Shown here: positions 592 to 56,974 of the stretch, one piece after another | Layout: the number at the start of each line of letters is the position of its first letter | How positions within the stretch are numbered: position 1 is the stretch's first letter | NCBI GenBank assembly: GCA_963714975.1 | Contig: CAVQQD010000002.1 | Location: 1,176,462-1,240,461, forward strand | Length of the DNA: 64,000 nucleotides | Reading direction: 5' to 3' | DNA from: an uncultured Gammaproteobacteria bacterium | GTDB lineage: Bacteria > Pseudomonadota > Gammaproteobacteria > JAURND01 | Made by a program: the position numbers and the translations under genes | Notes under the pieces: generated by a model | The model's input: the letters and a program-made list of their open reading frames with translations, nothing else | Told to the model about the DNA's origin: nothing | Database searches by the model: none

Positions 592-620
592 TTGCATTTC
601 AGTCAAAGTCAATGAATAAT
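592..620 (+). promoter_or_regulatory. sigma70-like promoter of CDPS operon, copy 1
   Basis: TTGCAT-17 nt-AATAAT, conserved at 50563-50591; first leader hairpin starts at 627. Confidence 0.55.
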
Positions 621-626
621 AGCAAA

Positions 627-1057: not shown

Positions 1058-1482
1058 ATGACTCCGAAAAAAATCAAACCCGTTTTCAAATACGAACAAA
1101 CTAACGCGCCAATTCCGTTCGATCAGGCGCATTGTTTACTGACGATTAGCGTCGGCCAAGAAGTGCATGAAGGCGAGCCATTCGCAGCGACCGTAGCTTT
1201 GGTGCGTCAGCAATTTGCGCGATGCACTCTGCTGATTGACGATACCCTGCAGCGCCACACCCTGGCATTATTGCACCCTGAACGCCGGGCGGAAGATTTT
1301 TTAGCCAGCGCACAACAAGAAGGCGAAGCGTGGTTAGCACGCAATCACTCTACTTATCAGCATTTACCACAGCTTAAAATAGTCCAGTGGGATGATTGGT
1401 TAAACCATCCGCGTTATCCCGCCACCTTTCGACGCGTTAACTATTTAGTGACTCAACACTCCGCTTACCAACACGCTATCAA

Positions 1483-3194
1483 CCTAAAAACGGCAGTTGA
1501 AGGACTTCCTAACCGATAAAACTCTGATCAAATATCTTCCAACAAAGTACCTTTTTTTCAATTTTATGTGGGTGCTGATAAACCAAGTGGTGGCTGCAGC
1601 GACTTTCCATTTAAATATTTTCCTACTGCTTGGCTCAAAATTCGATACCAACATTGATCATGTGTTAACTGCTCCGCATCTTTTTTTAATCCTTTAAAAA
1701 ATTTCACCACGCGGCTTAATAACATTTGAACTTTATTAATATTTCCATGCGTGCTGCTGATAACAATGTGTGTTTGTCTTGCATGGACAGTTTGTTTTGC
1801 CATAGCATGCAATAATAAGGGACGACTCGTAATAGCTTCTAAATGTTTGTCAGGTTCTGCCAGGCGAGCAAATATATTCCACCAATTATAAATAAGAGCA
1901 ACCACGCGCGACATAAAGCGGCAACGCTTCATGTCTTGGGTTGTAAACCCGCTCCAACCCCATTGATTTTTCAATTCATCAAATATATTTTCACTGTCCG
2001 CACGATCGCGATAATGTTGCGCAATAGTCAGTATTTCATCCGGTAATGAAGTAACTAATACAGCGTATTCATAAACATAGGTTTTATCATCAACCTCACC
2101 AAAACATATCTCTAATTGTTTTGTTCCTGCATGTTGTGAAATAAGCATTAAATTTTTTTGTATTTTTTTTCTCAACACGATGACTCGACGCGATCTTTCC
2201 CAACCATCTAATTTCAATAAGGCATCAGTCCCTTCCCAGCCCTGATCAGCAAAATACCAATCTTGACGAACCATTTTTACTTCTTCTATTAAACGCTTTA
2301 CATTCTTCGTTGATTTCAATTTAAATAAATAGGGTATTTGCTTTTCTTCAGCAATTTTCATCACACCATCTGTACCAAAAGCACAATCACCTCGCAAAAA
2401 TTGAGGCCACTGTGCACGCGGAATACGATCTAATAATTCCCATAAATCAGGCGCCGAATAACTGGATGCCATTTGATTACCAGGCTGTACTTCAACATCC
2501 AGTACTAAACGTAAATTGGCGATAAAATAGGAATGATAGGTATGAGAAGGGCGGCCAGGTTTTGTTGGATTATAACCCAATACAGCTCCTTCCTGTTTTC
2601 CATAAAGTACTTTAACTGTGGTATCAACATCTAATATCCATGGCACACTCAGCAATGGCACATAACATTTATTTAAATGTTTTTGTAGCCATACTATTCC
2701 AGCTTCTTCTTCCATTTTTACAAAAGCACGCCGGAGTGAATCTTCACTCACTATTTTTTTCATACCCAATAAATCTGGATTTACTCCATCACAACGCAAT
2801 GTAGTGATATGAGCATAGCGACTATGACCTGCTAAAACAGCTAATAACAGCGTACCTAAAATGTCACGATTTGAAGGAGCGTTGGGACTTACTAATTGCA
2901 ATGGACAATCTTCAACCCAAGGGTCAAATAAATTTCCAATCTTTAAAAATTCAATAAAAAATGCCAATTGTCCTAGCGGAGTTACAGCAGCTTGAGGATC
3001 CCATTCCACATAGATGCGACCACCAAAAGTATCTAGGGCTAATGAGACATTTTTGGCTAATAAATTTTCTTCTTTTAAGTCTTCTGGCAGTTCACCCGTT
3101 GGGTGAAGAGGAGCCGGAGGTAGTTTCATGCGATTTCCCCTGTAATTTTGTTATAAGGGTCGCATTATCTCATAGTTCAACTGCTTTTTTTAGG
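1483..3194 (-). mobile_element. IS1380-family insertion sequence
   Basis: Terminal IRs CCTAAAAACGGCAGTTGAA / CCTAAAAAAAGCAGTTGAA; ATCAA duplicated at 1478-1482 and 3195-3199; 1712 bp. Confidence 0.92.
1564..3129 (-). CDS. IS1380-family DDE transposase
   Basis: 521 aa; LDVDTT, RGDCAF and YRDRADSENIFDELK motifs. Confidence 0.9.
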   Translation of the reverse strand: MKLPPAPLHPTGELPEDLKEENLLAKNVSLALDTFGGRIYVEWDPQAAVTPLGQLAFFIEFLKIGNLFDPWVEDCPLQLVSPNAPSNRDILGTLLLAVLAGHSRYAHITTLRCDGVNPDLLGMKKIVSEDSLRRAFVKMEEEAGIVWLQKHLNKCYVPLLSVPWILDVDTTVKVLYGKQEGAVLGYNPTKPGRPSHTYHSYFIANLRLVLDVEVQPGNQMASSYSAPDLWELLDRIPRAQWPQFLRGDCAFGTDGVMKIAEEKQIPYLFKLKSTKNVKRLIEEVKMVRQDWYFADQGWEGTDALLKLDGWERSRRVIVLRKKIQKNLMLISQHAGTKQLEICFGEVDDKTYVYEYAVLVTSLPDEILTIAQHYRDRADSENIFDELKNQWGWSGFTTQDMKRCRFMSRVVALIYNWWNIFARLAEPDKHLEAITSRPLLLHAMAKQTVHARQTHIVISSTHGNINKVQMLLSRVVKFFKGLKKDAEQLTHDQCWYRILSQAVGKYLNGKSLQPPLGLSAPT

Positions 3195-3529
3195 ATCAAG
3201 CTAACCATTAGCACTTTTTTACAGCGTTACACTCAACGTCTGTCCCCTGAAATATTGAGACAATTTAATTACGCCCGTGCCCAGGAATTATGCCGGAATT
3301 ATGTCCTGGAAGAATGCACCGCGCTTTGTTTATGGCCGGAATTGCAGTGCCATTATGAGGTCTACCCCAGCCCACACAATGCCGCGATGACTTATACGCA
3401 TCAACAATTTCTGCTCCCGCGCTATCCCGATTTATTACACCCGATCTCGATTAAGTTTAAGCAGCGCAAGCAGTTCAAGCCGCAGCGCTTTGACTGCTTA
3501 CCGCCCACTCAAGCAGAAGGAGTGATGAA

Positions 3530-4710
3530 ATGACCCTCAATTTATTTTATATTCCCGAAATTATTTTTAGCTCGGCGCTTTTTATCAATGCCCTGCTGTT
3601 TATTCCACAATTTATCAAAATCCTCAAAGAAAAAACTGCCCAGGAAGTTTCCTTGCTGACCTTCGTCGGCTTTTGGCTAATTCAAGCCACCATTGTCTGG
3701 CACGGTTTTTTGCAGAGGGATTGGTGGTTGGTGTGGGGTTATATCTTCAGCATGTTCACCTGTGGCGCAGTGATTGTGGGCATTATTTTATATCGACAGC
3801 GTCCGCCCCCTGCCTCGCTGCAGGACCAATACGAATTACTCGACAATTTATTAGCGATCCTGCCAGAGCATTTGTATTGGATCGATCGCAAGGGGCGGTA
3901 TTTAGGTTGCAATAATCAGCAAGCCGAATCCGCAGGCCTGGCTTCGCGTGAAGACATTGTGGGCAAGCGCAATAGCGATTTGCCCTGGAATATCAATGCC
4001 GGGCAATTACCCGAAACTTTAGATGCACTCCATCAAAAAATCATGTGCACCGGTGAGGCACAGGTTGTCGAAGAACCAGCGGTGTTGCCCAATGGCCGCG
4101 AAGCAATTTTTCTCTCTCACAAAGTGCCGCTACATCGTCGCGGTCAAATTGTGGGGATGGCCGGTGTTTCGATTGATATTACCCGCCCGCATTGAAGCCG
4201 AAAAGGCGTTGCTGCAAGCCTTGCAAGCCAAAGACGATTTTCTGCACAATATCAGTCACGATTTGCGTACTCCGTTTTGTGGTCTGGTGACCATGACGGA
4301 ATCACTGGCATTAAATGAGGAAAATCCAGAACGGAAAATGGGACTGCAATGCATCATGGATTCGGCCGAAGCCTTACTCACTCATCTCAATGAAATTTTA
4401 GACTATGTGCGCTCCACAGCCGGCACCCCGGTGAGCCAAGTGGCTTTTGATTTACCGGCCCTGGTGCAAACCACCTATGCCATGTTGGCTCCAACCGCCC
4501 AAGCCAAGCAATTACATTTTACCTGGGAAGTGACCCAATCCCTGCCCACCAGTGTTTGTGGTGATCGGCTGCGCACCCAGCAAATTTTGTTACATGTTCT
4601 TGCCAATGCAATCAAATTCACACCCAAAGGCTTTGTGCGCTTGCAAACCGCGGTTGAATCTGAACAAGAACACCACTGGTTAATTCGCTTCACCGTAAGC
4701 GACAGCGGCA
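3530..4710 (+). pseudogene. PQ-loop/PAS histidine kinase, copy 1 (frameshift ~4190, truncated in HATPase)
   Basis: Matches 51800..53197 up to VSDSG at ~4710, then unrelated sequence; the rest of the ATP-binding domain is missing. Confidence 0.85.
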
Positions 4711-4994
4711 GAGGAAGTTATTGTCGAAATTACGCGACAATAAAAAAACAGCTGGGCATCTGCTATTTGGCTTGATTATTTTTTCTATGGTTACAGAAGG
4801 TAGTTTACAATTTACTCACTCGGGTAATATTTTTGGGCTAGAACCTCAAGCCGAGATATATTTAGCAATTGCTTTGTGTAGTACAGCTGTTTTAGCCCTC
4901 ATGATCAAAAAAGCAGTGACTGGCAATGTATTCTGCTTTACTTCAGAAGCAGGAGAAATTGCTGATACGCTGTATGCATTAAAAGGCAGTTGAC

Positions 4995-41334: not shown

Positions 41335-44300
41335 TTAGTTAGCTATTTTAAACACACGTAACTCTTGTAAGCAATCCAGTAATTTTTCCGCTAAAATTTT
41401 TACATGTGGCTCTTGAAACATCGTTTCATGATCACCTGGTGTCTGATGTCGTATTACTTTGAATGTTGAATATTTATCCCAATGATTAAAAGGCGCATCG
41501 TAAGGCTGATAAACGGAATTTACTTGCATGGCCTTAAACAAAGTTAGTGGAGCTCCTAACCGTGTAAACCGATAATTATCGAGCAATTTCGCGCGTTGCC
41601 ATTGCAAATCTAACAAGTGTTCAGCTTTAGTAATCCCTTTACTCAAAAATTGTGAACGCATCATATGATATTGCCTGCGCATCGCAGCTTCAAAAAATTC
41701 GGGATTGCGTAATTTATCTGGATGAGGTACCCAACCATCTAAAAGGGCAACCAATTCGATTAATTCACCTTGAACTATTAATTGGCGCGCCATTTCGAAA
41801 CTAATGATGGCACCACCTGAAGCACCACCTAATCGATATGGCCCCTTAGGCTGTACATGCCGCAGTGCTTGTAAATAAAAACTGGCCATATCTTCGAGCA
41901 ATTGAATACAACTTGATTAGATTTTTCTACCCCAGGATCTTGAATCCCATATAAAGGTTGATCTGGGTAAAAATATTTAATCAATGTTGTATACCAAAAA
42001 ACAGTTCCACCTACAGGATGAACTAAAAAAATCGGTGTTTTATTACCCAAAGGTTGTAACGGCACGATAGAGGATAAAAAGGTGGTTTGAGCTGATTGTT
42101 TTGTCGTTCTATATGTAAATTTCTCATTAATTAATTGATTTTCTATTATTTCCGCGGTCTCACTGATGGTTGATGCATCTAAAATTGAACGAATGGGTAA
42201 TTCCAAATTAAAATGTTGTTTTATTTTTAATAACATTTGCAAAGCAAGTAACGAATGCCCGCCTAAGATAAAAAAATTATCTAAGATACTCACTTTTTCA
42301 AGTCCTAATACTTCTCGCCAAATTTCAGCTAATTTTAATTCCACTGAATTACGTGGTGCTATAAATGGTTCCTCCATTAAAAAAGAAGCTTGATTGGGTT
42401 TGGGCAAGGCTACCTTGTCAACCTTACCGTTATTGGTCAGAGGTAGGTTTTCCAGAGAGATAAAAAAAGCGGGCAACATATATTCTGGCAAATAGTGTTT
42501 CAAATGAGTTCTTAATTCTCCCACATTAAAAGCTATCCCTTTTTTTAAAAGTAGATAAGCGATAATTTTTGGATAATTTTCTAAACTAATATTTAAGATA
42601 ACAGCAGCTTGTGCTATCGGAGGGAATTCTTCAATACGCATAGAGATTTCGTCTAAATCAATACGATGTCCACGAATCTTCACTTGATTATCAAGTCTTG
42701 CTAAATAGTCTAACTCCCCATTATCTAATCGCCTTACCCAATCACCGGTTTTATATAGCCGTTTAAACTCATTAAACAATAGAGTGGTTATAAAGTTTTT
42801 CTGCGTCAATTCTGCTGAACAATAACCACGTGCCAGCCAGGGACCTGCAACATACAATTCTCCTGGGATACCTAAAGGTACTGGCTGTAAATGGTGATCT
42901 AAAACATAAAGCGATACACCAGAAAATCCCTTACCTAAAGGATAGCGCAATCCAGCTATCAATTTATCCGAGGTAATTTCACAATGAGTAAGATGTACTG
43001 TTGCCTCAGTAATTCCATACATATTAATCAATTTTGGAAGGTGGTTATCGTGCGATTGAAACCATAGAGAAACTGAAGCAGGAGAAAGCGGTTCACCATC
43101 GAAAAAAATATAGCGTAAAAATAGCATCTTTTTAAGATTTCCATCTATAACAGCTAACTGAGTGAACGCTGAGGGTGTTTGACTTAAAATAGTTACTCGG
43201 TGTTTACCACTAGACTATAGAATTCATCGGCAGATCGAGCTATATCAAAAGGCACGATTACAAGGCTTGCACCGTGTAGTAATGCTCCCCAGATTTCCCA
43301 AACAGAAAAATCGAAAGCAATCGAATGAAATAAAGTCCAAATGTCATCGGATACAAAATCGAAGTGCTCATTAGCTGCAGTAATAAGATGAACCACGCTA
43401 TGTTGTTCTACCATAACTCCTTTTGGGTTACCCGTTGAGCCAGAAGTATACATCATGTACATCAAATCTTGTCCTTTGCATTCAACATCTAGGTTATGAA
43501 CGGATTCATTCATAACCAGTAACCAATCCTCGTCAATTAAAAATAATGAAATTTGAGGTAAAGTTTTAATATTGAGTTTAGAGATTAGAGCGCCTTGTGA
43601 AATCAAACTTTGTGCTGAACTATCTGACAAAATAAACTGGATTCGCTGAGATGGATAAATAGGATCAATAGGCAAGTATGCACCACCTGCTTTTAAGACA
43701 GCTAAAATTGCAACTATCATTTCCATGCCACGCTCTAAACAAATAGCTACAATCGACTCATTTTTTATCCCTTTTTTTTGTAAATGATGTGCCAATTGGT
43801 TAGCTTTATTGTTTAGCTGTGCATAAGTCAATTTTGAATTGGTAAATACTAAGGCCGTAGCTTCTGGAGTTTTTGTTACTTGTTCCTCAAATAATCGATG
43901 CGGGACTTTAGGAGGTATTGTCACAGGATAGCTTTGTGAATAATTAATCAATTGTGAAATTTCTATGGGGGATAAAAAATTAAGTTCATACCAATAACTT
44001 TCCTCCTCTTCAAGCATATTTTTTAATAAAGTTTTGATATGACCAACCATACTTTTTATTGTGTGCTCAGCAAACAAATTATGATCATAATTAAATTTTA
44101 AGCTTAAATAAGTACCTGGCAAAATAATAAAAGCTATTGGGTAGTGAGTTGGGTCATAAATAGTTGCCTTATCAAAAGGAAAAACCAAATTGCTATTGTT
44201 ATCTACAGGATAATTTTCAAATACAACTATGCTATCAAATAAATCAGATTCTGGAGTTAATTCCGACCACTCATTGATTGCTGTCAATGGTGTACTGGCA

Positions 44301-47300
44301 TGATCAAGCAAAACACTAAACCGCTGACGAACTTGACATAAGCAATCAATCAGCTTAGTTTTTTCTGTAAAGGTCACTCGGAGAGGAACAGTATTAATCA
44401 TCAATCCTAATGTGTTATCCACGCTCTTAAGTTCTGCTGGACGAGTAGATAATGTAACTCCAAACATTACATCACTGGCTTGATTATAACGTGCAAGAAG
44501 TAAAGCCCAAGCAGTCTGAAACAAAGTACTTAGAGTTAAGCCATGTTTTCTGGAAAATTTTTTTAATTCTTGAGTTAAGTTTACAGAAAGATCAAAACAG
44601 TCTATATGATAATCAGCTTCTGCATTTTTATCATTTAACACCTGTAAGACTTTCGTGGTGGTTGGAGAATAAAAACCTGCAAGGTATTCGCGCCAAAAAA
44701 ACTCTGTTGCCATAAAATTCTGTTTTTTGGTCCATTGAATATAGTTAGTAAAAGATCCAGCATGGGTTAAGCGAAGCGGCTGGTTTTCTAAATAGGCACT
44801 ATAAATTAAACTCAACTCACGGAACAAAACAGCAATACTCCACCCATCCAAACAAATATGATGGCAAGTTAAAATGATATGATAGCCACAAATTATTTCT
44901 TTGTCATCCAAGGTCTCTGTTATCATAATTAAGGTCGCACGTAGCAAGGGGGCTTGGGTAAAATCAAACCCCGCCTGGCGATCAGCAACTAAAAAGGTAT
45001 CTAATCTGGTTTTAACTTCAATCTCAGAATTATTCTGCCACAAATATTCCCGAACCGATAACACACAATCCGGATGGATAACTTGGATAGGCTCACCTAA
45101 TCCTTCCCATTCAAAGCTAGTACGCAAAATGGAATGTCGCCTAATGAGCTCTTGGAATGCTCGTTTTAATACTTCTGTCTGTAATGATTTTGAGTAAGTC
45201 CAGTGTAATTGAATTGTATATACAGCCGATTGTGGGCTATGGAGGGTATGTAATAATATACCTTTCTGCATAGCTGACAGAGGAAGAATGGTTTCTAGGT
45301 CCGGAGTTGCAGAAATTTTTTCCGAATTTTGACTCGTTGATTTAATTAATTCGATTAACAATTGCCGATATTTTTCCACCAACGCTCGTATAGTCGATTG
45401 TTGATAATGACGAAAGTTATAAGTGAATGATATGTGCAATTCAGCGGAGATAATCCACAAATTGATATCGATTACATAAGCGCGGCGATTTTTTCTACCA
45501 CTTTTCAAGTATATATTTGTAAGCTGAAAAACAGAGGACTTTGTTTTATTTTGTTTAAACTGTCCCCAATAATTAAAACTAATTTCTGCTTGAGGCTGAT
45601 CTTGCAAAGTTTGTCTCAGTGTAGTATCCGTTCCGAGGTAACGAAGAGTGCCATAGTTTACCTCATTATCTTTAATAGCTTGTCGCTGCTTTTTTACCTT
45701 TTCCAAGATAAGCTTCAGCGGAGCATTTTCTGGCCAAGTAACATGAAATGGGAATAAGCTAGTAAACCATCCTACGGTGCGTGACCAGTCCAATTGGCTG
45801 GTTAGCTCATGGCGACCATGACTCTCTAAGTCTACAAATAGGCAGGGATGATTTGTCCATTTTTCAACTATTTGAGCCAAAATAGTCAATAAAATTTCTT
45901 CGTGAGAACCGTTAATGCAACTTTTATCCATCTGCAAAAATTTTTGAGTAAAGTCTGTATTGAGTCTTATCGTATATTCATTACTTTCTTCTTCTAGATT
46001 GGTTGGCGATTCAAAATCTCTGGGGAGCTTAACTATATCATTGCCTAACAACCATGCTGATGATTCTGAAGATATTATATCAACATTGTTGTAAAGCTCC
46101 TTTGCCCAGTTTTTATAAGAAGAAGTCCTCGAAGGCAGAGCAGGATTGCGATTTTGTATCCAAGCTCGATATAAAGCCTCAAAATCTTCTAAAAAGATAC
46201 GCCATGAAACACCATCAATAATGAGATGATGTGCTATTAATAAAATTTTTACAAGTTTATTACGTTTTAAAAAAAAGACTGCCCCAAACAAAGGACCTTG
46301 TGCAAGGTCGAATTGAGCCATTATTTTTTCTTGCCAATAATTGATGGAATCGGATTCAAGTGAACAATTCTGATCTAAAAAAACACACTCTGATATAAAT
46401 CGAGAGTCAGTGCTATAATGCGATTTCCATCCCTTTTCTAGATTAGTAAATCGGCTACGCAAGACATCATGAAGCAATATTAACTGCTTCAATCCTTGCT
46501 GAATCTTCTCAATTGTTACTGGAACATTGATTTTAAGTACGCAAACCTGACACCATTGCTCAGGTTGAAAAAATGCTTGATTAAAGAACCAATGCTGAAT
46601 TGGAGTGAGTGGTATTTCCCCTTCCACGGAGACATTACAAGGGAAGAAAGTTATTTTCGGCATAACATTGACAGCTAAATCTTTTAAGATAGGATTAGCA
46701 AAAATTTGCCGAATGCGTAATGGTATATTCGATTGTCTTGCTTGAGAAACAACTTGCATTGCTAGGATAGAATCTCCACCCAATGAAAAAAAATTGTCAT
46801 CACTTCCAATATTTTTGAGACCTAATACTTTTTTCCAAATAACAGCTAAAGTTTTTTCGGTTGAGCTGCTAAGTTTAACACGAGATGGCTGTTTAAGCTT
46901 TGCGGGTACTTGATACATCTTAACCAATTTCTGAAAATCAAACTTAGCATTCGTCGTTAATGGAATTTCCGCAACTGCTTTGTAAGCATAAGGTAACATA
47001 AAAGCCGGTAATCTTTTGGCCAAATAATTTTTCAACTTTTTTTCATAGATTGTGAAAGACGTCTCTTTAAGTGGTTTGGTAACAAAAAAGGCAATTAGCT
47101 TATATTGGTTTGTGAGCAATATTGGCAAAACAACAGCTTGAATAAGGCCAGGAAATTTTAATAAATAGTGCTCAATTTCTTTTAATTCAATACGATTTCC
47201 TCGAATCTTGACTTGGTTATCCTTACGACCTAAATATTCGATATTTCCGCCTGGTAACCAGCGCACTAAATCCCCAGTTTTGTATGCACGCTTTTTATCA

Positions 47301-50144
47301 TGACCGATGCTCAACTCTCCTATAAATCCTTGAGTGATGCTCTCAACCTTGTGAGTATAACCCCGCGCTACGCCAATACCGCTTATGTAAAGTTCTCCCA
47401 CGACTCCTACAGGCACAGGAATATATTTTTGATCAAGAATATACGCTTGCATATTAGCCAAGGGTTTACCAATGGTCACCAAATCCTTTTGCACATTTAA
47501 TTCTGCTAATGTTGCATAAATAGTAGTTTCAGTAGGTCCGTATATATTATAAACATAACCACATTTTTTGAGCTGATCAGCCAAATTTTCAGGGAGTGCT
47601 TCACCAGCAGTTAATATTTTAAAATTCTTATTTCCAGACCACCCTATATTAACTAACATTTGCCAAGTACCAGGAGTTGCTTGCATCACTGTTACAGAGC
47701 GTTTATGCAGTAAGTATTTTATTTTTTCCCCATTCCTTCTGTCCTCATCACTTGCAATAACCACACAACCTCCTAAAGTAAGAGGGAGGTAATAATCTAG
47801 GGCTGCCACATCAAAAGCAATCGAAGTAACTGCTAGAAATTTATCATTATTTTCAACAATTATTGCATTTCGAATGGCCATCAGACAGTTGACGATACTT
47901 CTATGCTCCACTAATACTCCTTTAGGCTTACCAGTAGACCCAGATGTATAAATGATGTAAATCAATGTGGAAGAGGAATTTATAGTTTCTAGATTTTTAG
48001 GGGATTCTTTAGAAATTAACTCCCAATCTTTATCAATCAGAATCTGGTTATCAATCAGTTTGGTTAAACTATTTAATTGTTTTTTTAAGGATTGTTCCGT
48101 TAATAAAAATTTGCTTTTACAGTCTGCTAAGATTTCGCGCATTCTTGCCACTGGATATTCAGGATCAATCGGCACATAAGCACCCCCCGCCTTTAAAATC
48201 CCCAAAATCCCAACAATCATTTCAATACTACGTTCCATGCAAATTGCGACTAGAGTTTCAGCTGCCACTCCTTGCTGACGTAAATAATGCGCTAGTTGAT
48301 TGGCTTTTTGATTGAGCTCAGCGATAGGTGAGCAATTGATTTTCAAAACATACCGCAATTTTGTCGGGATGTTGTCGAACTTGTTCTTCGAATAATTGCG
48401 GGATAGTTTTATCGCGTGGATAGTCTGTTTCAGTTTGATTCCAATCGATTAAGAGTTGCTGTTGTTCTTGTGGCGTGAGTAGCGCTAAATCAGCGATAGA
48501 TGTTTCGGGTTGTGCAGTAATGGCGGTTAGCAGGGTTTCTAAATGGCCAGGCATTTGTTGCAGGATAGTTTTTAAGTACGGTTCTTGTGCTAAGCATTTT
48601 TGATCGACGTGCCAAGATAAACTACGATCTTTGGCAGATATCATCAATACCAAAGCGGCACGAGATTTTTGTAGCTGCTCGATTTCTCCAATCACTACCG
48701 CAGTAAACACGGCGTGTTTGACTTCGGTTAAAATTGGGTAACGATAAAATATATCGCGTAAATAACTGCTTTTTTCGTGCATGGCAAATAACTCAGCTTG
48801 TAATTGAGAGACTACTTGGCCGAAGTGTAATCCGTCTTGCAAGGCTGTGAAATACGGTAGTTCTAAACTCGTCCTGGCATGGATGCCAGGATCCAGATCA
48901 CTAGGATGTGAAGCATTATGATCAGGTAATTGCAGCAACACCCCTACTTTGGGTTGATTACCAAGGCGATAGAGGTAGACGAGCCAGAGAGCCAACAGCA
49001 AGGTGTTGAAATCGTAGGTGGGGTAATGTTGTTGTAATAATTTTTGTAGGGGTTCCGAGGGGTTCCATTGTTGCAGGTGATGGTATTCGTAATGAGCATT
49101 ATTAGGGGAATTCAGAAAAGGTATTTTGGCAGACTCGATGGTTTGCCATTGGGAAACCCAGTAGCTTTCATCGCCTCCTCCGCTCTTTAAATCCCCCCTG
49201 CCCCCCTTTTTCAAAGGGGGGATTTCCGCTCGGGCCTCCAGAGTGACTACATCACCTTCTAAAGTACAAATCTGCCGAATGGCAATGTCGTAAGTGGCAG
49301 TTGCAACGCGCCAATAGTCCGCAGTAGCAGTAACAATTGTTCCAGGCTCTGCAATCGATGGCTCGGGTAATAATTCTAATTTAGTGACAATAAATTCTTC
49401 CCAGCTTCCCTGTTGGGACGACGGTTCGCTCTGCTGGGATGACAACTTAAATTTAGGACAAGTAAAACGATTAGGATAAGAGCCAAATTGAGTAGCCCGA
49501 AATAATCGCTCAATAGCTTCAGCACTGGCATTCCAATCAATCCAGCCATCACCAGCAGGTTTCTGATGCAGGCCAAAATAGCTACGTTGACTTAAATCTT
49601 GAGGCTGGCATTGGTAACTGTGCTTCGCCAAAGATTTCACTAAATCAGGGAAGCTTTGCAGTGCGGCTTCATAGCACTTGAGATTTAAGCTTAGTGCAGT
49701 TTCATCTTCAGTAATTGGCACCATCACTTGCTGCAAAATATCACCGGCATCGACGGTTTCAATGGCCACATGCCAAGTGATGCCATGGCTCTTTTCTTGA
49801 TTTAAGATCGCCCAAGAAGTGGCGTGAACTCCCGCGTAACGCGGTAAAGGCGCATCATGAAAATTAATCGCAAATTGCCGAGGCAGATTGAGTATCGCAG
49901 CAGGCAAAATCTGCGCATTGACGATGCTCAATAAATAATCAAAAGGAGTCTTGTTGAGTGCTTCTTGGGCTGCTGCTAGAGAGGCATAGTGGGAAATTCC
50001 CTGTTGCAAGGCCCATAGTTCTGCGGCTTCATACGCAGAAATAATACCTAGTATTTGCTGTCCTTGTTGTTGGATAATTTTGGCACATTCCAGATGGAGA
50101 TTATCCTCTCCAATGATAAAACAAGTGAAAATATCGGGGGACAT
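41335..50144 (-). CDS. Two-module NRPS F-A-T-E-C-A-T-TE (apparent frameshifts ~48330, ~43200, ~41900)
   Basis: NFHDAPLPRYAG (F); YTSGSTGxPKG twice; GGDS and GGHS (T); HHLIIDGVSW, SRTVGWFTS (E); HHICLDG (C); GASGG (TE). Confidence 0.92.
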
Positions 50145-50598
50145 AGGATTGAAATGACTTCACGTTGGGTTTTTAAATTTTCCCTCCTCAATAAATTCCT
50201 AACAAATTTGTCATTCTAAGCGAAACGAAAGACCTCCCCCCTGACCTCCTAATCCCTACAGGAAGTACAATCCAAGGTAGGAAGCGAAACTTTCACATCC
50301 CTGTGGGTGGATCCTGACCTCCATGCCAGGACGACGCTTACTAGGAGGCCCTTCGGTTCGCTCAGAATAACAATGGGTTGGTCTGTCACGCTTGCGATAC
50401 TACCCAACCACGGTGACAGTCTACTAGCTTAAGGAAAAATTAACAAGTGTAGCAAAAGATTTATAAAAGAAACGGAAATTGCAAGCGGGGTGTGATGGGG
50501 CACTAAGAATAGATCAGTTGGAGAGAAGTTAAACCCTAAGATAAGCCGCCCTTAAGAAAAATTTGCATTTCAGCCAAAGTCAATGAATAATGATGAAA

Positions 50599-51034
50599 CC
50601 TCAGGGGCTTGCGCCTCCGAGGCCGCGCCAAAAGAATGTTAGTCGCATTCTTGAGGCACTTCCACAACAACAACCTGAATGTGAGGTTAGCCGTCATGAC
50701 AGCTCAAAGCTTATCGCATTGCGCGTTCGTACAAAACTCTTTTTTTGATGTTCACTTCATTTTTTCGCCTGGTTCGTCTAGGCCGGATTGGTATGCCTGG
50801 ATCAATTAGCTTTTACCCCATGAAAACTCCTCGATTGTCTTCGGCGTGATTGTGGACTTGGGGTGCGAGTACCGGTTTTTTGGTGGCCAACATCGATGAA
50901 GAGGGGTAAGCGAGTAGAGAGGGAATAGGTATGGCGAAGTAAGCTGTATTTTCCTCGCTTCGCCATCACCTACCAAATCTTCTGCTGCCTACCTGGTTCG
51001 ATGCTTTATTTCGCATCAACTCAGGAACGCGCCG
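50599..51034 (+). ncRNA. Structured 5' leader RNA of CDPS operon, copy 2
   Basis: Same stems as 627-1057 with compensatory substitutions. Confidence 0.65.
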
Positions 51035-51781
51035 ATGACTCCGAATAAAATCAAACCCGTTTTCAAATACGACAAAACTCACGCGCCCATTCCGTTTGAT
51101 CAGGCGCATTGTTTACTGACAATTAGCGTCGGTCAAGAAGTGCACGAAGACGAGCCATTCGCGGCCACCGTAGCTTTAGTGCGTAAGCAATTTGCAAAAT
51201 GCACTTTGCTAATTGATGATACCCTGCAGCGCCATACTCTGGCATTACTACACCCTATGCTTCGAGCGGAGGATTTTGTAGCGACTACGCAGCAAGCAGG
51301 CGCAGCCTGGTTAGCGCGCAATCAAATTGTTTATGAACAGTTACCGCAGCTTAAAATAGTGCAGTGGAATTATTGGTTAACTCATCCGCGTTATCCCGCC
51401 ACTTTCAAACGCGTCCACTATTTAGTGAGCGAATACCCAGCCTACCAACAGACTATACATAGCACCGTCCGCACCTTTTTACAGCGCTACACCCCACGGT
51501 TATCCCCTGAAGTGCTAAGACAATTTAATTACATCCGTGCCCAGGAATTATGTCGAGATTATGTCTTGGAAGAATGTACCGCGCTGTGTTTATGGCCGGA
51601 ATTGCAGTGCCATTATGAAATCTACCCCAGTCCACGCAATGCAGCGATGACTTATACCCATCAACAATTCCTGCTCCCACGCTACCCGAATTTGTTACAC
51701 CCGATCGCGATTAAATTTAAGCAGCGCAAGCAGTTCAAGCCGCAACGCTTTATTTCTTTGCCCCGAGTGAACCCAAGCTAA
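51035..51781 (+). CDS. tRNA-dependent cyclodipeptide synthase, XYP subfamily
   Basis: 248 aa; ISVGQ (catalytic Ser), DDTLQRH, YVLEE, EIYP. Confidence 0.85.
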   Translation: MTPNKIKPVFKYDKTHAPIPFDQAHCLLTISVGQEVHEDEPFAATVALVRKQFAKCTLLIDDTLQRHTLALLHPMLRAEDFVATTQQAGAAWLARNQIVYEQLPQLKIVQWNYWLTHPRYPATFKRVHYLVSEYPAYQQTIHSTVRTFLQRYTPRLSPEVLRQFNYIRAQELCRDYVLEECTALCLWPELQCHYEIYPSPRNAAMTYTHQQFLLPRYPNLLHPIAIKFKQRKQFKPQRFISLPRVNPS

Positions 51782-51799
51782 CTTAGAGGAGTCCCTTCG

Positions 51800-53197
51800 A
51801 TGCTACTGAACTTCCCTACCCTTTCTGATCTGTTATTGAGCAGCGCGCTTTTTATCAACGCGCTGCTGTTTATTCCGCAATTTATCAAAATCCTCAAAGA
51901 AAAAACTGCCCAGGAAGTTTCCTTGCTGACCTTTGTCGGCTTTTGGCTGATTCAAGCGACGATTGTCTGGCACGGTTTTTTGCAACGAGATTCGTTATTG
52001 GTGTGGGGTTATGCCTTCAGTATGCTCACCTGCGGCGCGGTGATTGTAGGCATTATTTTATATCGGCGGCGTCCGCCAAATGCTTCGCTGCAGGAGCAAT
52101 ACGAATTACTCGATAATTTATTAGCCATCATGCCAGAACATTTATATTGGATCGATCGCGAGGGGCGGTATTTAGGCTGCAATAATCAGCAAGCCGAATC
52201 CGCAGGCCTGGCCTCGCGTGAAGACATTGTGGGTAAACGTAATAGCGATTTACCCTGGAATATCAATGCCGGGCAATTACCCGAAACCTTAGATGCACTC
52301 AATCAAACCATTATGCGCACCGGCGAGGCACAAATTGTCGAAGAACCCGCGGTATTGCCGAATGGCCGTAAAGCAATTTTCCTTTCCCACAAAGTGCCGC
52401 TGCGTCGACGCGGTCAAATCGTGGGGATGGCGGGCGTTTCAATTGATATTACCGCCCACATCGAAGCTGAAAAGTCGATGTTGCAAGCACTGCAAGCCAA
52501 AGATGATTTTCTCCACAATATCAGCCACGATTTGCGAACGCCGTTTTGTGGTCTGGTGACCATGACGGAAACGCTGGCTTTAAACGAGGAAAATGCGGAA
52601 CGGAAAATCGGCCTACAATGCATTATGGATTCAGCCGAAGCCTTACTCAATCATCTCAATGAAATTTTAGACTATGTACGCTCCACCGCCGGCACTCCGG
52701 TAAGTCAAGCGGCCTTTGATTTACCGGCCCTGGTGCAAACCACTTATGCGATGCTAGCGCCGGCCGCCCAAGCCAAACAATTACATTTTACCTGGGAAGT
52801 GACCCAGTCTCTGCCCACCAGCGTTTGTGGTGATCGGCTGCGCACCCAGCAAATTTTGCTACATGTTCTCGCCAATGCGATCAAATTCACGCCCCAGGGG
52901 TTTGTGCGCTTGCAAACTGCGATTGAAGCCGAAGAAGCACACCAGTGGTTAATTCGCTTTACTGTGAGCGACAGTGGCATCGGCATTCCAGAAGATCAGT
53001 GCGCGAAAATCTTTGAACCCTTTCATCGCCTCACTCCTTCCTATCAAGCGCAGTATGCAGGCAAGGGGCTGGGATTAAGTCTCGTGAAACAATTTTTAAC
53101 CGAGTTAGGCGGTGAAATTCAGGTAGCAAGCACCCTCAACCAGGGCAGCACCTTCACTCTGTTCATTCCCTTCCAACGCATAGGAGACTATCCATGA
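51800..53197 (+). CDS. PQ-loop (SemiSWEET-like)-PAS sensor histidine kinase
   Basis: 3-TM N-terminus FIPQFIKILKEKTAQEVS; PAS; ISHDLRTP; NAIKFT, DSGIGI, GKGLGL. Confidence 0.9.
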   Translation: MLLNFPTLSDLLLSSALFINALLFIPQFIKILKEKTAQEVSLLTFVGFWLIQATIVWHGFLQRDSLLVWGYAFSMLTCGAVIVGIILYRRRPPNASLQEQYELLDNLLAIMPEHLYWIDREGRYLGCNNQQAESAGLASREDIVGKRNSDLPWNINAGQLPETLDALNQTIMRTGEAQIVEEPAVLPNGRKAIFLSHKVPLRRRGQIVGMAGVSIDITAHIEAEKSMLQALQAKDDFLHNISHDLRTPFCGLVTMTETLALNEENAERKIGLQCIMDSAEALLNHLNEILDYVRSTAGTPVSQAAFDLPALVQTTYAMLAPAAQAKQLHFTWEVTQSLPTSVCGDRLRTQQILLHVLANAIKFTPQGFVRLQTAIEAEEAHQWLIRFTVSDSGIGIPEDQCAKIFEPFHRLTPSYQAQYAGKGLGLSLVKQFLTELGGEIQVASTLNQGSTFTLFIPFQRIGDYP

Positions 53198-53590
53198 AAA
53201 ATGTATTACTCATCGAGCCTGATCCGATGATTGCCTATACCAACCCGCCGATTTTTTGAAAGCTTGCATTGCTGCGTCAACGTGGTCAATAGCGGACTCG
53301 CCGCTTTAGAAAAGCTGCATCAAGCCTATCGATTAATCGTGGTAACCCTGGATCTGCCAGACTTAAATGGCCTTATGATCGCGCGCCACTTGCGGCAAAG
53401 CAAAGGACCCAATAGTAAGACACCCATAGTTATTGTCACCACTCACGAAGATGCGCAGCAAAAAATCCAAGCCTATGAATTAGGAATCAAGGGATTTTTA
53501 CTGAAACCCCTGACGAAAGAATTATGCCGGCAGATGATCGACGATTTAGTATTATCAGCCGCAGCTCCTCATTATTTTTTAGAGGGTTAA
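53194..53590 (+). CDS. Single-domain atypical receiver protein (frameshift ~53243)
   Basis: MKNVLLIEPD from an ATGA overlap; YRLIVVTLDLPDLNG, PIVIVTT, FLLKP. Confidence 0.8.
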
Positions 53591-53593
53591 AAA

Positions 53594-53938
53594 TTGAGAC
53601 AACTCGACACGCCTTGGACCGATCGTGAAATACGCGCCCTCACCCATTTCTTTGCAGCAGCCTTGGGGTTTTATGTACATCATCCAGAACGCGCCGACAC
53701 CGCTTCGGCACAAGACTTTATCCGGGATTTAAATACGCTGGTGGGCTTAAGTAGTACAGTAGTATTAGTCCAGCAAGAAATACTGCGGCCGATTAAACCC
53801 TTGCTCAACCGCTGGTGGCGCTATCAACCGTTTCATCAACACTCGAAGCAAATTAAGGCCCTGGCTTCTGCGGTGGTTAGTTTGGCTGCCTACAGTGGTG
53901 ATTTGATGCGCGACGTGGGTTACCCCCGCCTACAGTGA
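53594..53938 (+). CDS. Hypothetical protein, probably last gene of CDPS operon
   Basis: 114-aa ORF 3 nt after the receiver gene. Confidence 0.55.
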   Translation: MRQLDTPWTDREIRALTHFFAAALGFYVHHPERADTASAQDFIRDLNTLVGLSSTVVLVQQEILRPIKPLLNRWWRYQPFHQHSKQIKALASAVVSLAAYSGDLMRDVGYPRLQ

Positions 53939-54379: not shown

Positions 54380-56974
54380 TTAATTCGTACCCCCACCATT
54401 CAGACTCATCGACGACTGATAGCTTTGCTTCATCCGTAAGCCCGCCATCGCCAGCTCGATTTGATCCCTATAATCCTCATACCCTTTCTCGGTATAAACG
54501 GCTACGGCAACATTCGCACCCCCCATCATGCTGCCAATTTTGGGGAACCAATCGTATGTCCAATGATACACGCGATCCTTCAACTTCACAAAACTCTCAC
54601 AATCCTTATCCCCTACTCCCCACACGTCTTGGCACCGAGCCAAATGATATCCCGCCAAAAATTCATTGGGTTCAATCCTTAGTAATAATTCATACCAATC
54701 TTTGTAGTAGACTGGAGCAAACTTCATGATTAAAAATGTCTGCTTATAATATTTTCTATTGTGTTCTTCACAGGCGCGCCAGCTGGTGGCAAGAACATTT
54801 TCACCTAGTTGCCCAATGACATAGTTCACTACCTCTGGATTCATGCCATACATGGCACAATACAGCGGATTTTTACCTTGGGCATTGGGTAAATCCACTA
54901 GCGCCCCTTTGCCGATGGCGGCTTTAACTTTCACCAAACTGCCATTTTCACAAGCAGTAACTAATTCATTTTGTAGTGGCATCAATTGTTGGCGCTTTTT
55001 TTCATCGAGGGGGGCTGCTTTTGTTTTGGCTTCACTCGATGACGTGGCTTTAGAATTACTGGCTCCACTAAAGAATGCCGGTTGACTGGCATGTAGGGAG
55101 GGGGTAGTACTGGTCGAAGCTTGCGTCGCAATGGTGGATTGATGAGTCATCAGGCCGGATTGAGTCATAAAGCGAGTATTTTCTTTTTCTTCTTGCTTCC
55201 CACAATTCAGACCCATTGACTGATTGGTTTGCGCCGCCTGTAATACCTCCAGCGCCTGCTTAATTTGATTCCGATAACCTTCAAACCCCGTCTCTGTATA
55301 ATCGCAAGAGAAACGGCGCTCCCACATCTGGAGTCGGAGTTGAGAAAGCAACCTCACCTCCATCTTCAACCTAATAAAATTACAACACCACGACGTATCC
55401 TCAAAATCGTTCTGCATCCGATCGAGGTGATACCCCACCAAAAATTCATTGGGTTCAATCTTCTCGAGTAAATCATACCAATCTTTATAAGTATCAGGAG
55501 CAAATTTCATAATTAAAAAAGTTTGCCCATAATATTTTTTATTGTGTTCTTCACAGGCACTCCAGCTAGTGGCAGGGGCATTTTTATCACGCTGTTTAAT
55601 GAAATATTGCACTACTTCAGGATTCATACCGTACACGGCACAATACAGCGGATTTTTACCTTGGACATTAGGTAAATCCACTAGCGCCCCTTTGGTGATA
55701 GCGGCTTTAACTTTCGCCAAACTGCCATTTTCACAAGCAGTAACTAATTCATTTTGTAGTGGCATTAATTGTTGGTGTTTTTTTTCATCCAAAGGGGTTG
55801 GTTTTTTGACTTCACTCGATGTGGTGCTAACAGAGCTACTGGGTCCGCCAAAGAATGCCGGCTGACTAGCATGTAGAGAAGGAATAGTCGTCAAGACTGG
55901 CGTTATAACAGAAGATTGTTGCGTCACCAAATTGGATTGCGCCACAGTCACAAACTTGGTTATTTCTTTTTCTTCTTGCTTCTTCGGTGTTTTATCAACT
56001 TGATGTGTAGGGGCAAATTGGCTGCCATCGTTTAGCTTTTTCCCAACAGAAGAGCTGGGACTAGTACTAGGTGGCCCAGCTTTTTCTTTTATTTCACTCT
56101 TTTGAGCAGCTTGCCATAATTGATCGAGTTGTGTGGCTAATACCTTGGCCTCGGGACGTTTTTCGGGGGCTTGCCAACACTCTTCAGCAATCGTTCTAAA
56201 TTTTTCAGGTGTATCTGTTTGAAAAATTTCTTTTTTTCCACTCTTAATCCACTCGACAACCATACCTCCCGCTTCTTTATAGGGTTCTTTACGGCTGGCT
56301 AACTCCCACAGTATCATACCTGCGCTGTACACATCCGATTTTTTGGTGGGCCTCTCTGTGAAAGTTTCAGGAGCAGCCCACAATATAGTGCCTTTAAAAC
56401 CTCCTTTAGTAATTGCTGCAGAGCTGACTTTAATCTTCGCTGAGCCAAAATCAGCTAATTTCGCACGACCATTACTATCGAGCAGAACATTGAAGCTTTT
56501 TAAATCACGATGCAAAATATCTTTGCTGTGTAAATGATGTAGACCAATACTGATATCCAAACCAATACGATAGCGTGTACTCCAAGAAATATCTTGTCGA
56601 CTGTGTAAAAAATTATATAAATTACCGCCAGGCATGTATTGCATCACTAAACAATAATGCGGTTTTTCTAAACTGATACCTCTGAGAGGCACTAAATAAT
56701 CGGATTGGGTGCTGGCTTGCGCCATCACTGTCGCTTCGGTGAGAATTTCTTCTTGAGTCTCTTCACTAAAGTCTTGAGCAGGGTATTTTTTAATTGCTAC
56801 AGGATTAAAATCCCATTCTCCTAGGTACACTGTGCCAGAACTGCCTCCATCCAAACGCTCTTTATATATTAAATCGCTATGACGAATACTAAGCGACATA
56901 AAAAATCCCCCATCTGACTGGATGAGCGATGTGGAAGATTGGAGTTTGGTTTCAATGAGCTTGCCTTGTGCCAT
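54380..56974 (-). CDS. Eukaryote-like (TKL-type) protein kinase with duplicated ankyrin-like unit
   Basis: GGSSGTVY, VAIK, HRDLKSFN, DFG, WAAPE; two copies of LVTACENGSL...GKNPLYCA. Confidence 0.9.
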   Translation of the reverse strand: MAQGKLIETKLQSSTSLIQSDGGFFMSLSIRHSDLIYKERLDGGSSGTVYLGEWDFNPVAIKKYPAQDFSEETQEEILTEATVMAQASTQSDYLVPLRGISLEKPHYCLVMQYMPGGNLYNFLHSRQDISWSTRYRIGLDISIGLHHLHSKDILHRDLKSFNVLLDSNGRAKLADFGSAKIKVSSAAITKGGFKGTILWAAPETFTERPTKKSDVYSAGMILWELASRKEPYKEAGGMVVEWIKSGKKEIFQTDTPEKFRTIAEECWQAPEKRPEAKVLATQLDQLWQAAQKSEIKEKAGPPSTSPSSSVGKKLNDGSQFAPTHQVDKTPKKQEEKEITKFVTVAQSNLVTQQSSVITPVLTTIPSLHASQPAFFGGPSSSVSTTSSEVKKPTPLDEKKHQQLMPLQNELVTACENGSLAKVKAAITKGALVDLPNVQGKNPLYCAVYGMNPEVVQYFIKQRDKNAPATSWSACEEHNKKYYGQTFLIMKFAPDTYKDWYDLLEKIEPNEFLVGYHLDRMQNDFEDTSWCCNFIRLKMEVRLLSQLRLQMWERRFSCDYTETGFEGYRNQIKQALEVLQAAQTNQSMGLNCGKQEEKENTRFMTQSGLMTHQSTIATQASTSTTPSLHASQPAFFSGASNSKATSSSEAKTKAAPLDEKKRQQLMPLQNELVTACENGSLVKVKAAIGKGALVDLPNAQGKNPLYCAMYGMNPEVVNYVIGQLGENVLATSWRACEEHNRKYYKQTFLIMKFAPVYYKDWYELLLRIEPNEFLAGYHLARCQDVWGVGDKDCESFVKLKDRVYHWTYDWFPKIGSMMGGANVAVAVYTEKGYEDYRDQIELAMAGLRMKQSYQSSMSLNGGGTN

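Follow-up and report, generated by a model that had tools for sequence, protein, structure and literature searches.

The DNA analysed here (hereafter the window) is a stretch of 64,000 nucleotides of contig CAVQQD010000002.1 (assembly GCA_963714975.1) from an uncultured gammaproteobacterium of the GTDB lineage JAURND01. At 51035-53938 on the forward strand it carries a tight four-gene operon that encodes a cyclodipeptide synthase (CDPS), a histidine kinase with a PQ-loop and a PAS domain (465 aa, 51800-53197), a receiver and a small open reading frame (ORF) (Table 1). Indeed, 18 nt separate the stop codon of the CDPS gene from the start of the kinase gene, the kinase stop overlaps the receiver ATG (ATGA) at 53194, and the gap between the receiver stop and the start of the small ORF is 3 nt. 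The initial annotation of this DNA had described a CDPS gene tightly followed by a kinase gene, then by a receiver gene and a small ORF, and all four ORFs were found in place.

The four gene products of the operon

The first protein shares sequence homology along its entire length with solved CDPS structures, namely 5ocd (E 6.5e-53, residues 6-230), 5mlq (1.5e-29) and 5mlp (1.1e-7), and its assignment to the XYP-type CDPSs is upheld by the 5ocd match and by the presence of the catalytic-type residues. These residues (S31 in the motif ISVGQ, Y176, E180 and Y197-P198) are invariant in a six-sequence alignment (A1) and are aligned with 5ocd; we take them to correspond to S37, Y178, E182, Y202 and P203 of AlbC. 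They are also the same in all the paralogous copies compared, and the ratio of nonsynonymous to synonymous substitution rates (dN/dS) of the CDPS gene is 0.12-0.18 among three intact paralogues (dS 0.24-0.41). Fdum-CDPS, a relative whose structure is 5OCD, is described as using two Gly-tRNAs as substrates and as producing cGG (PMC12945691), and cGE is described as the product of a XYP CDPS of Legionella lansingensis (PMC5816076).

The Pfam matches of the kinase are, in order, a PQ-loop (residues 8-46), PAS_4 (112-219), HisKA (233-298) and HATPase_c (344-459). Residues 11-86 match the solved SemiSWEET 9kax end to end (E 5.1e-7), followed by 4rng, 4x5m and 4qnc. The AF2 model (pLDDT 82.2, from a 28-sequence alignment) consists of three N-terminal helices (6-34, 42-62 and 65-89), a break at 90-93 (RRPP) where model confidence is low, the PAS domain (94-216), the DHp domain (218-296) and the ATP-binding domain (304-460). 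The Pfam match, the 9kax alignment and the three modelled helices agree with the input region first proposed for this kinase, a PQ-loop of three transmembrane helices (TM) fused to PAS. In the charge distribution read from the sequence, TM3 is followed by RRR, so that an N-out/C-in topology fits, with the PAS domain in the cytoplasm.

The PQ motif is P26-Q27, in helix 1. The invariant residues of the PQ-loop family are N20, Q27, K35, S41, F45, G47, Q52, D64 and G70, of which the polar N20, Q52 and D64 sit within the helices. Sugar binding by SemiSWEETs presumably relies on a pair formed by a Trp in helix 2 and an Asn in helix 3; in the 9kax alignment, these two columns are Ile and Tyr in the window kinase, and for this reason the domain is named SemiSWEET-like here and not a sugar SemiSWEET. 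A complex prediction with two copies of the PQ-loop domain (score 0.22, mark 0.42) gave no verdict and is not used either way.

In the PAS domain, P112, Y116, W117, Y124, G126, C127, N128, N148, D165, N168, E181, E182 and K198 are invariant among 28 homologues. The residues of the kinase core, namely H243 (the phospho-His), N359, D391/G393/G395 and G421/G423/G425, are invariant or nearly so (alignment A6, 28 homologues), and the kinase matches PDB entry 7z8n (E 1.1e-41). Its dN/dS among the intact paralogues (dS 0.24-0.41) is 0.08-0.15. Constraint is strongest in the PAS domain (0.02-0.07, with 7 of 130 positions varying) and weaker in the PQ-loop (0.11-0.25, 17 of 95 positions). The intact CDPS-kinase copies, with dN/dS values of 0.08-0.18, are under purifying selection.

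The true start of the receiver gene is the ATG at 53194 (MKNVLLIEPDP...). Four paralogous copies read MKNVLLIEPDPMIAYTTRRFFE... in one frame, and relative to these a 1-nt insertion near 53241-53243 shifts the frame of the window copy; owing to this frameshift, the listed 119-aa ORF (53231-53590) is without strand beta-1. A receiver followed by a small ORF, as initially annotated, is thus correct in that both genes are present, but the receiver starts at 53194 and not at 53231, and its frame is broken. The stretch after the frameshift still contains the phospho-acceptor Asp (VVTLDLPD). Intact receiver paralogues have LLIEPDP where DD is usual, and the acceptor position is Asn in one paralogous copy (C3:799k) and Glu in a deletion remnant (C2:961k). 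A search of sequencing runs listed two soil-metagenome DNA runs, each with 0.06-0.07 of the words, and zero RNA runs.

The protein encoded by the small ORF is, as far as homology indicates, a conserved partner of single-domain receivers. Its assignment as an Hpt domain found no support, with no Pfam match at E<=10, a top Atlas score of 0.79 and no HxxKG-type motif by eye. The family has an invariant His-Pro motif. Pairs of receiver and small-ORF homologues (~40% identity), free of kinase and CDPS genes, are located at G000 C2:362559-363132, C3:599341-600022 and C3:707566-708193.

Conservation of the CDPS-kinase pairing and of its PQ-loop partner

When 185,579 species genomes were scanned for the pattern of the CDPS alignment, 46 loci were returned (30-49% CDPS identity), all from Legionella, Fluoribacter, Tatlockia, Coxiellaceae or gammaproteobacterial metagenome-assembled genomes. 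A PAS and/or kinase-core match adjoins the CDPS gene in 44 of the 46 loci, in co-directional, convergent or divergent orientation. Three of these matches are partial: a PAS without kinase core (L028), a core only, at a contig end (L044), and a PAS fragment of 28 residues (L047). The exceptions are L032 and L040, the contig of the latter ending 239 nt past the CDPS gene. The pairing therefore recurs outside the window, in these genomes as well as in metagenomes, where 33 of 80 PQ-loop loci have a CDPS gene.

Orientations and trees were based on 32 complete CDPS-kinase pairs (31 loci and the window). The kinase gene is co-directional and downstream of the CDPS gene in 12 pairs (4 of them PQ-fused), divergent in 3 (1 PQ-fused) and convergent in 17, the latter coding for soluble PAS-PAS-kinase-receiver proteins of ~823 aa in named Legionella and Fluoribacter species. 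CDPS and kinase are co-inherited: their distances are correlated (Mantel r 0.896, with 0 of 2000 permutations as high), and their trees agree, sharing 13 of 29 bipartitions (label shuffles: mean 0.26, maximum 3); a species history in common contributes to this. Each of five Legionellales genomes has 5-19 domain matches to the PAS type of the window, from which the chance adjacency of such a PAS domain to a given gene is estimated at roughly 1%; in four of these five genomes, the genome-best PAS match is the CDPS-adjacent kinase. Since the CDPS gene of the relatives G004 and G006 (same family) and G042 (same class) precedes a gene for a soluble PAS-HisKA-HATPase-receiver(-Hpt) hybrid kinase, the window receiver is best seen as a part that was probably split off such a hybrid kinase.

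Among the neighbour families around the CDPS genes, none recurs across clades besides the PAS kinase, the PQ-loop and the receiver, and no conserved tailoring enzyme was found there. The absence of tailoring genes, as initially described, holds for the operon itself but not for its surroundings, where the head of a nonribosomal peptide synthetase (NRPS) gene (48318-50144) lies 890 nt upstream. The conserved pairing, the lack of a recurring tailoring family and the agreement of the trees fit signalling better than an antibiotic cluster.

As a separate observation, a distant CDPS-like match (E 5.4e-9) was found at G061:C13:780624-782250, within a 491-aa ORF ~1 kb from a divergent gene for a 564-aa PAS kinase; this kinase has the second-best match of that genome to the window PAS domain. 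Long CDPS-like ORFs of this kind (400-550 aa) number about 20 in other Legionellales genomes, and the CDPS-PAS-kinase rule may extend to a second CDPS subfamily.

The PQ-loop is found within 6 kb in 11 of the 46 CDPS loci, namely fused in five, as a separate adjacent gene in five (80-117 aa) and 4.2 kb off in one. There is no PQ-loop within 6 kb in the other 35 loci, whose kinases start directly with PAS and are soluble. The window CDPS groups in the clade holding most PQ-fused kinases. A protein search with kinase residues 1-230 yielded 54 homologues, 26 of them with PF04193 annotated; the PQ-plus-PAS homologues are nearly all metagenomic, and one is from a sponge symbiont.

A metagenome scan with the PQ-loop alignment, scored by hidden Markov models (HMMs), kept 80 loci, on contigs that are short. 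A CDPS gene lies within 1.5 kb of the PQ-loop in 33 of them (the PQ-loop being part of a PAS kinase in 16 and a gene of its own in 17), a protein referred to below as X in 8, a PAS kinase only in 9, and no partner in 30, of which 22 are on short contigs. Fused PQ-PAS kinases are encoded at 21 of the 80 loci, 16 of them beside a CDPS gene. The genes are arranged as CDPS>PQ-PAS-kinase or PQ>CDPS>PAS-kinase; in all 29 CDPS-bearing loci tabulated, the CDPS gene is co-directional with and adjacent to the PQ gene, and an additional minus-strand CDPS match is present in L115, L125 and L180. Flanks of 1.5 kb or more were available on either side at 27 loci, and these include 19 with a PAS kinase, 10 with a CDPS and 5 with X. 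Free-standing PQ-loop genes, present at many loci, code for 80-140 aa.

The PQ-loop had initially been proposed as the receptor for the cyclodipeptide. As such a 'transceptor', a dimeric three-helix bundle would pass the binding or transport of the cyclodipeptide on to the kinase, and the PAS domain would be a mere relay. This is favoured by the widespread fusion (54 PQ-plus-PAS homologues, 21 of 80 metagenome loci), by the CDPS genes beside 16 of the 21 fused kinases, by the invariant N20, Q52 and D64 within the helices, and by the existence of transporter-fused kinases such as the SLC5-STAC kinase CrbS (PMC5715377). However, the domain is dispensable for the pairing, being absent within 6 kb in 35 of the 46 CDPS loci, and it is often encoded by a free-standing gene, with no covalent signalling link in those cases. 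Moreover, the PAS domain is more constrained and has many invariant polar residues, and the RRPP helix break, of low model confidence, lies between TM3 and the PAS cap helix. We consider a receptor role of the PQ-loop improbable, and it is not favoured here.

In the Legionellales, the PQ-loop family also belongs to a parallel operon. It is present in 36 of the 204 genomes scored (a sample), and 30 loci were examined. The PQ gene is immediately followed by the gene for X (345-460 aa) in 23 of these 30 loci, and a PAS domain follows X before the end of the 1.5-kb flank in 10 of the 23. The remaining loci have a CDPS instead (3 of 30), a kinase only (1 of 30) or nothing detectable (3 of 30). An operon PQ>X>PAS-PAS-kinase>receiver-protein is also encoded in the order to which the source genome of the window belongs. 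No match to X was obtained in Pfam, NCBIfam or the PDB sequences. Its model is confident (pLDDT 84.6, pTM 0.84), and a Foldseek search of this model against the PDB gave no match at E<=0.001 (best TM 0.14). X has invariant Cys, His, Arg and Asn residues. X as a divergent CDPS was rejected for the present, with a profile-profile probability of 0.2 in hhalign (3 vs 6 and 21 vs 46 sequences). In an Atlas feature search, a 'putative cyclodipeptide synthase' cluster came first (0.87, 165 shared features), below the lead-exceeding level. Judging from gene order, X appears to take the CDPS slot in the same chassis, and it may be a second signal synthase. At the genome level, CDPS is encoded in 59 of the 204 Legionellales genomes, the PQ-loop in 36 and both in 17, with about 10 expected if they were independent; this enrichment is mild, because most PQ-loop genes accompany X, and no argument is built on it.

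A proposed signalling circuit and the readings that compete with it

In the reading favoured here, the operon would be a self-signalling circuit, in which the cyclodipeptide is read by the PAS domain and the PQ-loop is a membrane carrier and not a receptor; we hold the chances for and against this reading to be evenly balanced. In such a circuit, the CDPS would join the amino acids of two aminoacyl-tRNAs in the cytoplasm, forming a small and probably polar cyclodipeptide. The SemiSWEET-like PQ-loop would act as a passive carrier by which the compound equilibrates across the inner membrane, with export and re-entry, and the cytoplasmic PAS domain of the same protein would bind the compound and set the activity of the HisKA kinase. 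The kinase would then hand its phosphate to the adjacent single-domain receiver, whose output would involve the small partner protein and downstream regulators. Small polar products like those of the characterised CDPS relatives plausibly need a carrier; in lineages where the product is presumably membrane-permeant, there would be no PQ-loop and the kinase would be soluble. The PAS domain is favoured as the sensor because the synthase and the PAS kinase are constant, while the PQ-loop is frequent yet optional, and fused or free.

Several points weigh against this circuit. (i) The first protein missed the threshold of the curated CDPS model TIGR04539 (21.7 bits, cut-off 45); it also had zero Pfam matches, and it was filed as a CDPS despite these sub-threshold HMMs because of its structure-backed homology, the curated CDPS models under-representing the Legionellales clade to which it belongs. 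(ii) Ile and Tyr at the two presumed sugar-binding columns would argue against a sugar substrate, and they count against the circuit insofar as no cargo is indicated. (iii) The best curated match of the kinase is ArcB (202.8 bits, cut-off 838), which would equally permit a redox-type input. (iv) The synthase and the sensor are both cytoplasmic, so that export of the signal is not required, and no DNA-binding regulator linked to the operon was found. (v) The window copy may not signal, its receiver being frameshifted, several paralogous copies of the module are decayed, and the three-contig assembly might carry indel errors. (vi) The paired loci are not independent, 17 of the 32 being from closely related Legionella and Fluoribacter with one arrangement, and the agreement of the trees may merely mirror a shared species history. 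(vii) No partner at all was found at 8 of the 27 well-flanked metagenome PQ loci, so that other contexts of the PQ-loop family exist as well.

The cytoplasmic location of both synthase and sensor also suits a reading that we regard as rather unlikely, in which the cyclodipeptide is an intracellular metabolic signal that reports tRNA charging, i.e. amino-acid supply, and is read by the PAS kinase inside the producer. The PQ-loop, where present, would then be a leak or reset valve. The 35 of 46 CDPS loci with soluble kinases and without PQ-loop within 6 kb speak for such a signal, as does amino-acid supply being a known life-cycle cue in Legionella-like bacteria. The substrates of CDPSs, which are aminoacyl-tRNAs (PMC12945691), likewise count for it. 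On the other hand, the repeated recruitment of a membrane carrier beside CDPS genes (33 of 80 PQ-loop loci) is easier to understand if the compound crosses the membrane. Small cyclodipeptides may also pass through membranes unaided; the line between intracellular and cell-to-cell signalling would then be blurred, and the evidence presented here does not separate this reading from the self-signalling circuit.

The ArcB match also bears on a further reading, quite unlikely in our view, according to which the kinase is an ordinary cluster-situated regulator that senses a redox, oxygen or host cue and controls the expression of the CDPS gene (and here also of the NRPS genes), with the PQ-loop exporting the cyclodipeptide as an effector or metabolite. 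Indeed, each CDPS-kinase copy in this genome adjoins an NRPS head and eukaryote-like kinase/ankyrin genes, and host-directed roles have been proposed for the CDPS products of intracellular bacteria by Aravind et al. 2010 (PMC2922099). However, NRPS and kinase-ankyrin genes are found near CDPS in none of the 46 loci of other genomes, and the lack of a linked DNA-binding regulator tells against a cluster-situated regulator too. In addition, a specific PAS orthologue travels with the CDPS (genome-best in four of five genomes, with agreeing trees), which is unexpected for a generic sensor.

Returning to the self-signalling circuit, the X operons raise the possibility, doubtful but worth stating, that Legionella-like bacteria share a modular signalling chassis made of a SemiSWEET-like carrier, an interchangeable synthase (CDPS or X) and a cognate cytoplasmic PAS kinase. 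If true, this chassis would provide the first dedicated receptor for CDPS-made cyclodipeptides and the first non-sugar role for bacterial SemiSWEET homologues, and it would imply a second, chemically uncharacterised signal made by X.

Alpha-hydroxyketone quorum sensing is encoded by lqsA-lqsR-hdeD-lqsS in Legionella and by cqsA-cqsS in Vibrio. In both LqsA/LqsS and CqsA/CqsS, as in the operon described here, a synthase gene lies beside genes for a sensor kinase and a receiver protein without classical DNA-binding output, and Lqs is found in the same bacterial group as the CDPS-kinase system. The synthase of these systems is, however, a pyridoxal-phosphate-dependent acyltransferase that makes a lipid-like ketone, whereas here it is a tRNA-dependent CDPS. 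Likewise, their sensor is a polytopic membrane receptor, whereas here a cytoplasmic PAS domain would take this role, in some cases joined by a SemiSWEET-like domain of 3 TM. The resemblance is one of logic only, and no sequence relationship is claimed. As in LuxI/LuxR, a cytoplasmic receptor would respond to a membrane-crossing signal, the CDPS circuit being wired through a kinase instead.

With the SemiSWEET sugar uniporters (9kax, 4rng, 4x5m, 4qnc), the PQ-loop domain shares a three-helix unit of ~90 residues, the PQ motif and a full-length alignment; it differs from them in occurring with a PAS histidine kinase and a CDPS, either as a fusion or as a neighbouring gene, and in having Ile/Tyr in place of the presumed sugar-binding Trp/Asn. 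The CDPS belongs to the same enzyme family as AlbC, YvmC, Rv2275 and the solved 5OCD and 5MLQ (Nbra-CDPS), with the same catalytic-type residues. The partners in classical CDPS clusters are tailoring enzymes (oxidases, P450s, methyltransferases; PMC5767969), unlike here, where the cross-clade partners are only the PAS kinase, the PQ-loop protein and the receiver. CbrA and CrbS (SLC5-STAC-kinase) also have a solute-carrier-type domain fused N-terminal to a signalling kinase (PMC5715377); their carrier is unrelated (13-TM SLC5, as opposed to the 3-TM PQ-loop), and they serve nutrient sensing with no linked synthase, in contrast to the linked synthase found here.

In the literature, Skinnider et al. 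2018 counted PAS among the non-biosynthetic Pfam domains found most often within 2.5 kb of a CDPS, with quorum sensing suggested in a single sentence (PMC5767969). Aravind et al. 2010 reported CDPSs in Legionella and Rickettsiella, used 'Hiskin+rec' as one of the labels for genes in an operon figure, and proposed host manipulation and not sensing (PMC2922099). In the accessible portions of these two papers, neither gives taxa, kinase architecture, counts, a PQ-loop partner or co-inheritance. Literature searches (outside figures and supplements) returned no relevant paper combining CDPS, histidine kinase and Legionella. No relevant paper joined PQ-loop or SemiSWEET with a histidine kinase, and among the matches listed none paired a cyclodipeptide term with a carrier term (SemiSWEET/PQ-loop). 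The initial view that no system of this type had been described is accordingly sustained for the pairing and its PQ-loop partner, which the accessible text of the 2010 and 2018 papers does not analyse, but it has to be qualified by the hint at PAS and quorum sensing printed in 2018. Signalling by a synthase and a sensor kinase is a known principle; the chemistry is new, the carrier partner is undescribed, and the conservation is now documented.

Whether bacterial cyclodipeptides are true signals, and by what they are received, has been debated for years without a dedicated synthase-receptor pair. This locus family would offer one: in dozens of Legionellales genomes and contigs from metagenomes, the CDPS gene is firmly linked to the gene for a single PAS kinase. 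The transporter-like third partner suggests a route across the membrane for a polar product. If the proposed circuit is true, it would represent a new chemical class for two-component quorum sensing and a new substrate class for the SemiSWEET/PQ-loop superfamily. The locus family also points to a sister operon, in which the protein in the synthase slot has no known fold.

Paralogous copies and surroundings of the operon

Table 1. Positions of the operon, its domains, its paralogous copies and neighbouring features, with examples of X (window numbering unless a contig or locus is named)
Feature	Position	Strand	Remarks
CDPS, XYP subfamily, 248 aa	51035..51781	+	homology to solved XYP CDPS structures
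SemiSWEET-like PQ-loop domain, kinase residues 1-95	51800..52084	+	PF04193 22.5 bits (cut-off 22); SemiSWEET structures
Cytoplasmic PAS domain (PAS_4 type), kinase residues 96-225	52085..52474	+	Pfam PAS_4 E 1.1e-10; proposed ligand sensor
DHp (HisKA) and catalytic ATP-binding domain, kinase residues 226-465	52475..53197	+	Pfam HisKA 1.1e-10, HATPase_c 1.4e-25
Single-domain receiver gene	53194..53590	+	ATG overlaps kinase stop; frameshifted in window copy
Small ORF, 114 aa, no known family	53594..53938	+	no Pfam match at E<=10; Atlas best score 0.79
Window copy B	51035-53938	+	receiver frameshifted, the other three genes intact
Window copy A, decayed	1058..4715	+	insertion sequence in CDPS; kinase frameshifted and truncated; without receiver and small ORF
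DDE_Tnp_1_4 transposase of the insertion sequence, 521 aa	1567-3129	-	splits copy A CDPS
Copy C2:11k			all four genes intact
Copy C2:389k			CDPS and kinase intact; receiver and small ORF deleted
Copy C3:799k			frameshift in CDPS; Asn instead of Asp at the receiver acceptor position; small ORF truncated
Intergenic region	50145..51034		890 nt; separates divergent NRPS head from CDPS
Promoter-like matches	50413-50440, 50562-50591	+	within intergenic region; not above background
NRPS gene head	48318..50144	-	formyltransferase N and C domains, condensation domain; divergent from CDPS
Eukaryote-like Ser/Thr kinase with ankyrin repeats	54380..56974	-	convergent with operon; member of repeated supercassette
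Supercassette sites	39600-59800; G000 C2:5958-25926, C2:382602-395845, C2:1107492-1120289, C3:791586-814144
X, examples	L018:1978-3249 (-); L080:5986-7023; L082:8909-10192; L085-L113

The source genome (2.56 Mb, three contigs, 43% GC) is the sole member of its genus among the genomes compared, and its order comprises nine genomes. It carries five CDPS-kinase copies and two deletion remnants, both of them joining the N-terminus of the CDPS to the receiver. Strong PQ-loop matches are found in this genome only at the five module copies, with one further weak match (E 0.007). The recurrence of CDPS and kinase at 1058-4710, reported in the initial annotation, is real, with 86% DNA identity between 1-4710 and 49966-52979 of the window, but this copy is a pseudogene broken by an insertion sequence (IS) and a frameshift. 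Indeed, its CDPS is split by the IS into fragments at 1058-1483 and 3195-3503, and its kinase is left as fragments at 3530-4240 and 4179-4715, ending near residue 395. The IS (1567-3129) is present in at least six copies, 100% identical, across the genome, which suggests that it is currently active, one CDPS copy having been inactivated by it.

Every CDPS-kinase copy sits in a larger repeated block beside an NRPS cluster. Eukaryote-like Ser/Thr-kinase/ankyrin genes lie on one side of the block. The other side is occupied by the NRPS cluster, which begins with the formyltransferase-condensation head and ends with a second PAS kinase and a receiver, this second kinase sharing 30-36% identity with the CDPS-linked one. 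NRPS and kinase-ankyrin genes were found near CDPS in none of the 46 loci of other genomes, and the block is therefore a local feature of the source genome. A supply of the neighbouring NRPS by the CDPS found no support in conservation, no NRPS, kinase-ankyrin or small-ORF homologue being encoded within 6 kb at the 46 other-genome loci. The paralogues as diversified private channels were rejected as well, their PAS domain differing at 7 of 130 positions and their CDPS catalytic-type residues being identical.

This supercassette of ~20 kb is repeated about six times with 75-92% identity, and its copies differ in deletions and frameshifts. It contains two small ORFs, one or two Ser/Thr-kinase-ankyrin genes, the CDPS operon, the NRPS cluster and the second PAS kinase with its receiver. 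In the window, the second PAS kinase and receiver (39600-41311, minus strand) are in two ORFs, which are continuous in other copies of the cassette.

The NRPS head is transcribed divergently from the CDPS gene, and the intergenic region of 890 nt between them is kept among the paralogous cassettes; parts of it (about 50337-50468 and 50542-50671) are found again elsewhere in the genome. A scan for promoter-like sites gave 10 sites, with 5.6 +/- 2.3 expected, which is not above background, and a scan for terminator-like sites was uninformative (3 sites, 4.9 expected). The 608-aa ORF of the NRPS head shares 41 nt with the NRPS ORF that comes next (43193-48358, 1721 aa), the two being read in different frames; this break at 48318-48358 falls at the start of an adenylation domain and represents a frameshift or else an indel of the assembly, a single gene being expected here. 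Furthermore, a 450-nt repeat (84% identity, 54645-55096 and 55428-55876) lies inside the Ser/Thr-kinase-ankyrin gene, and a 2.1-kb repeat (91% identity, 28532-30673 and 33315-35460) is present in a region upstream of large ORFs.

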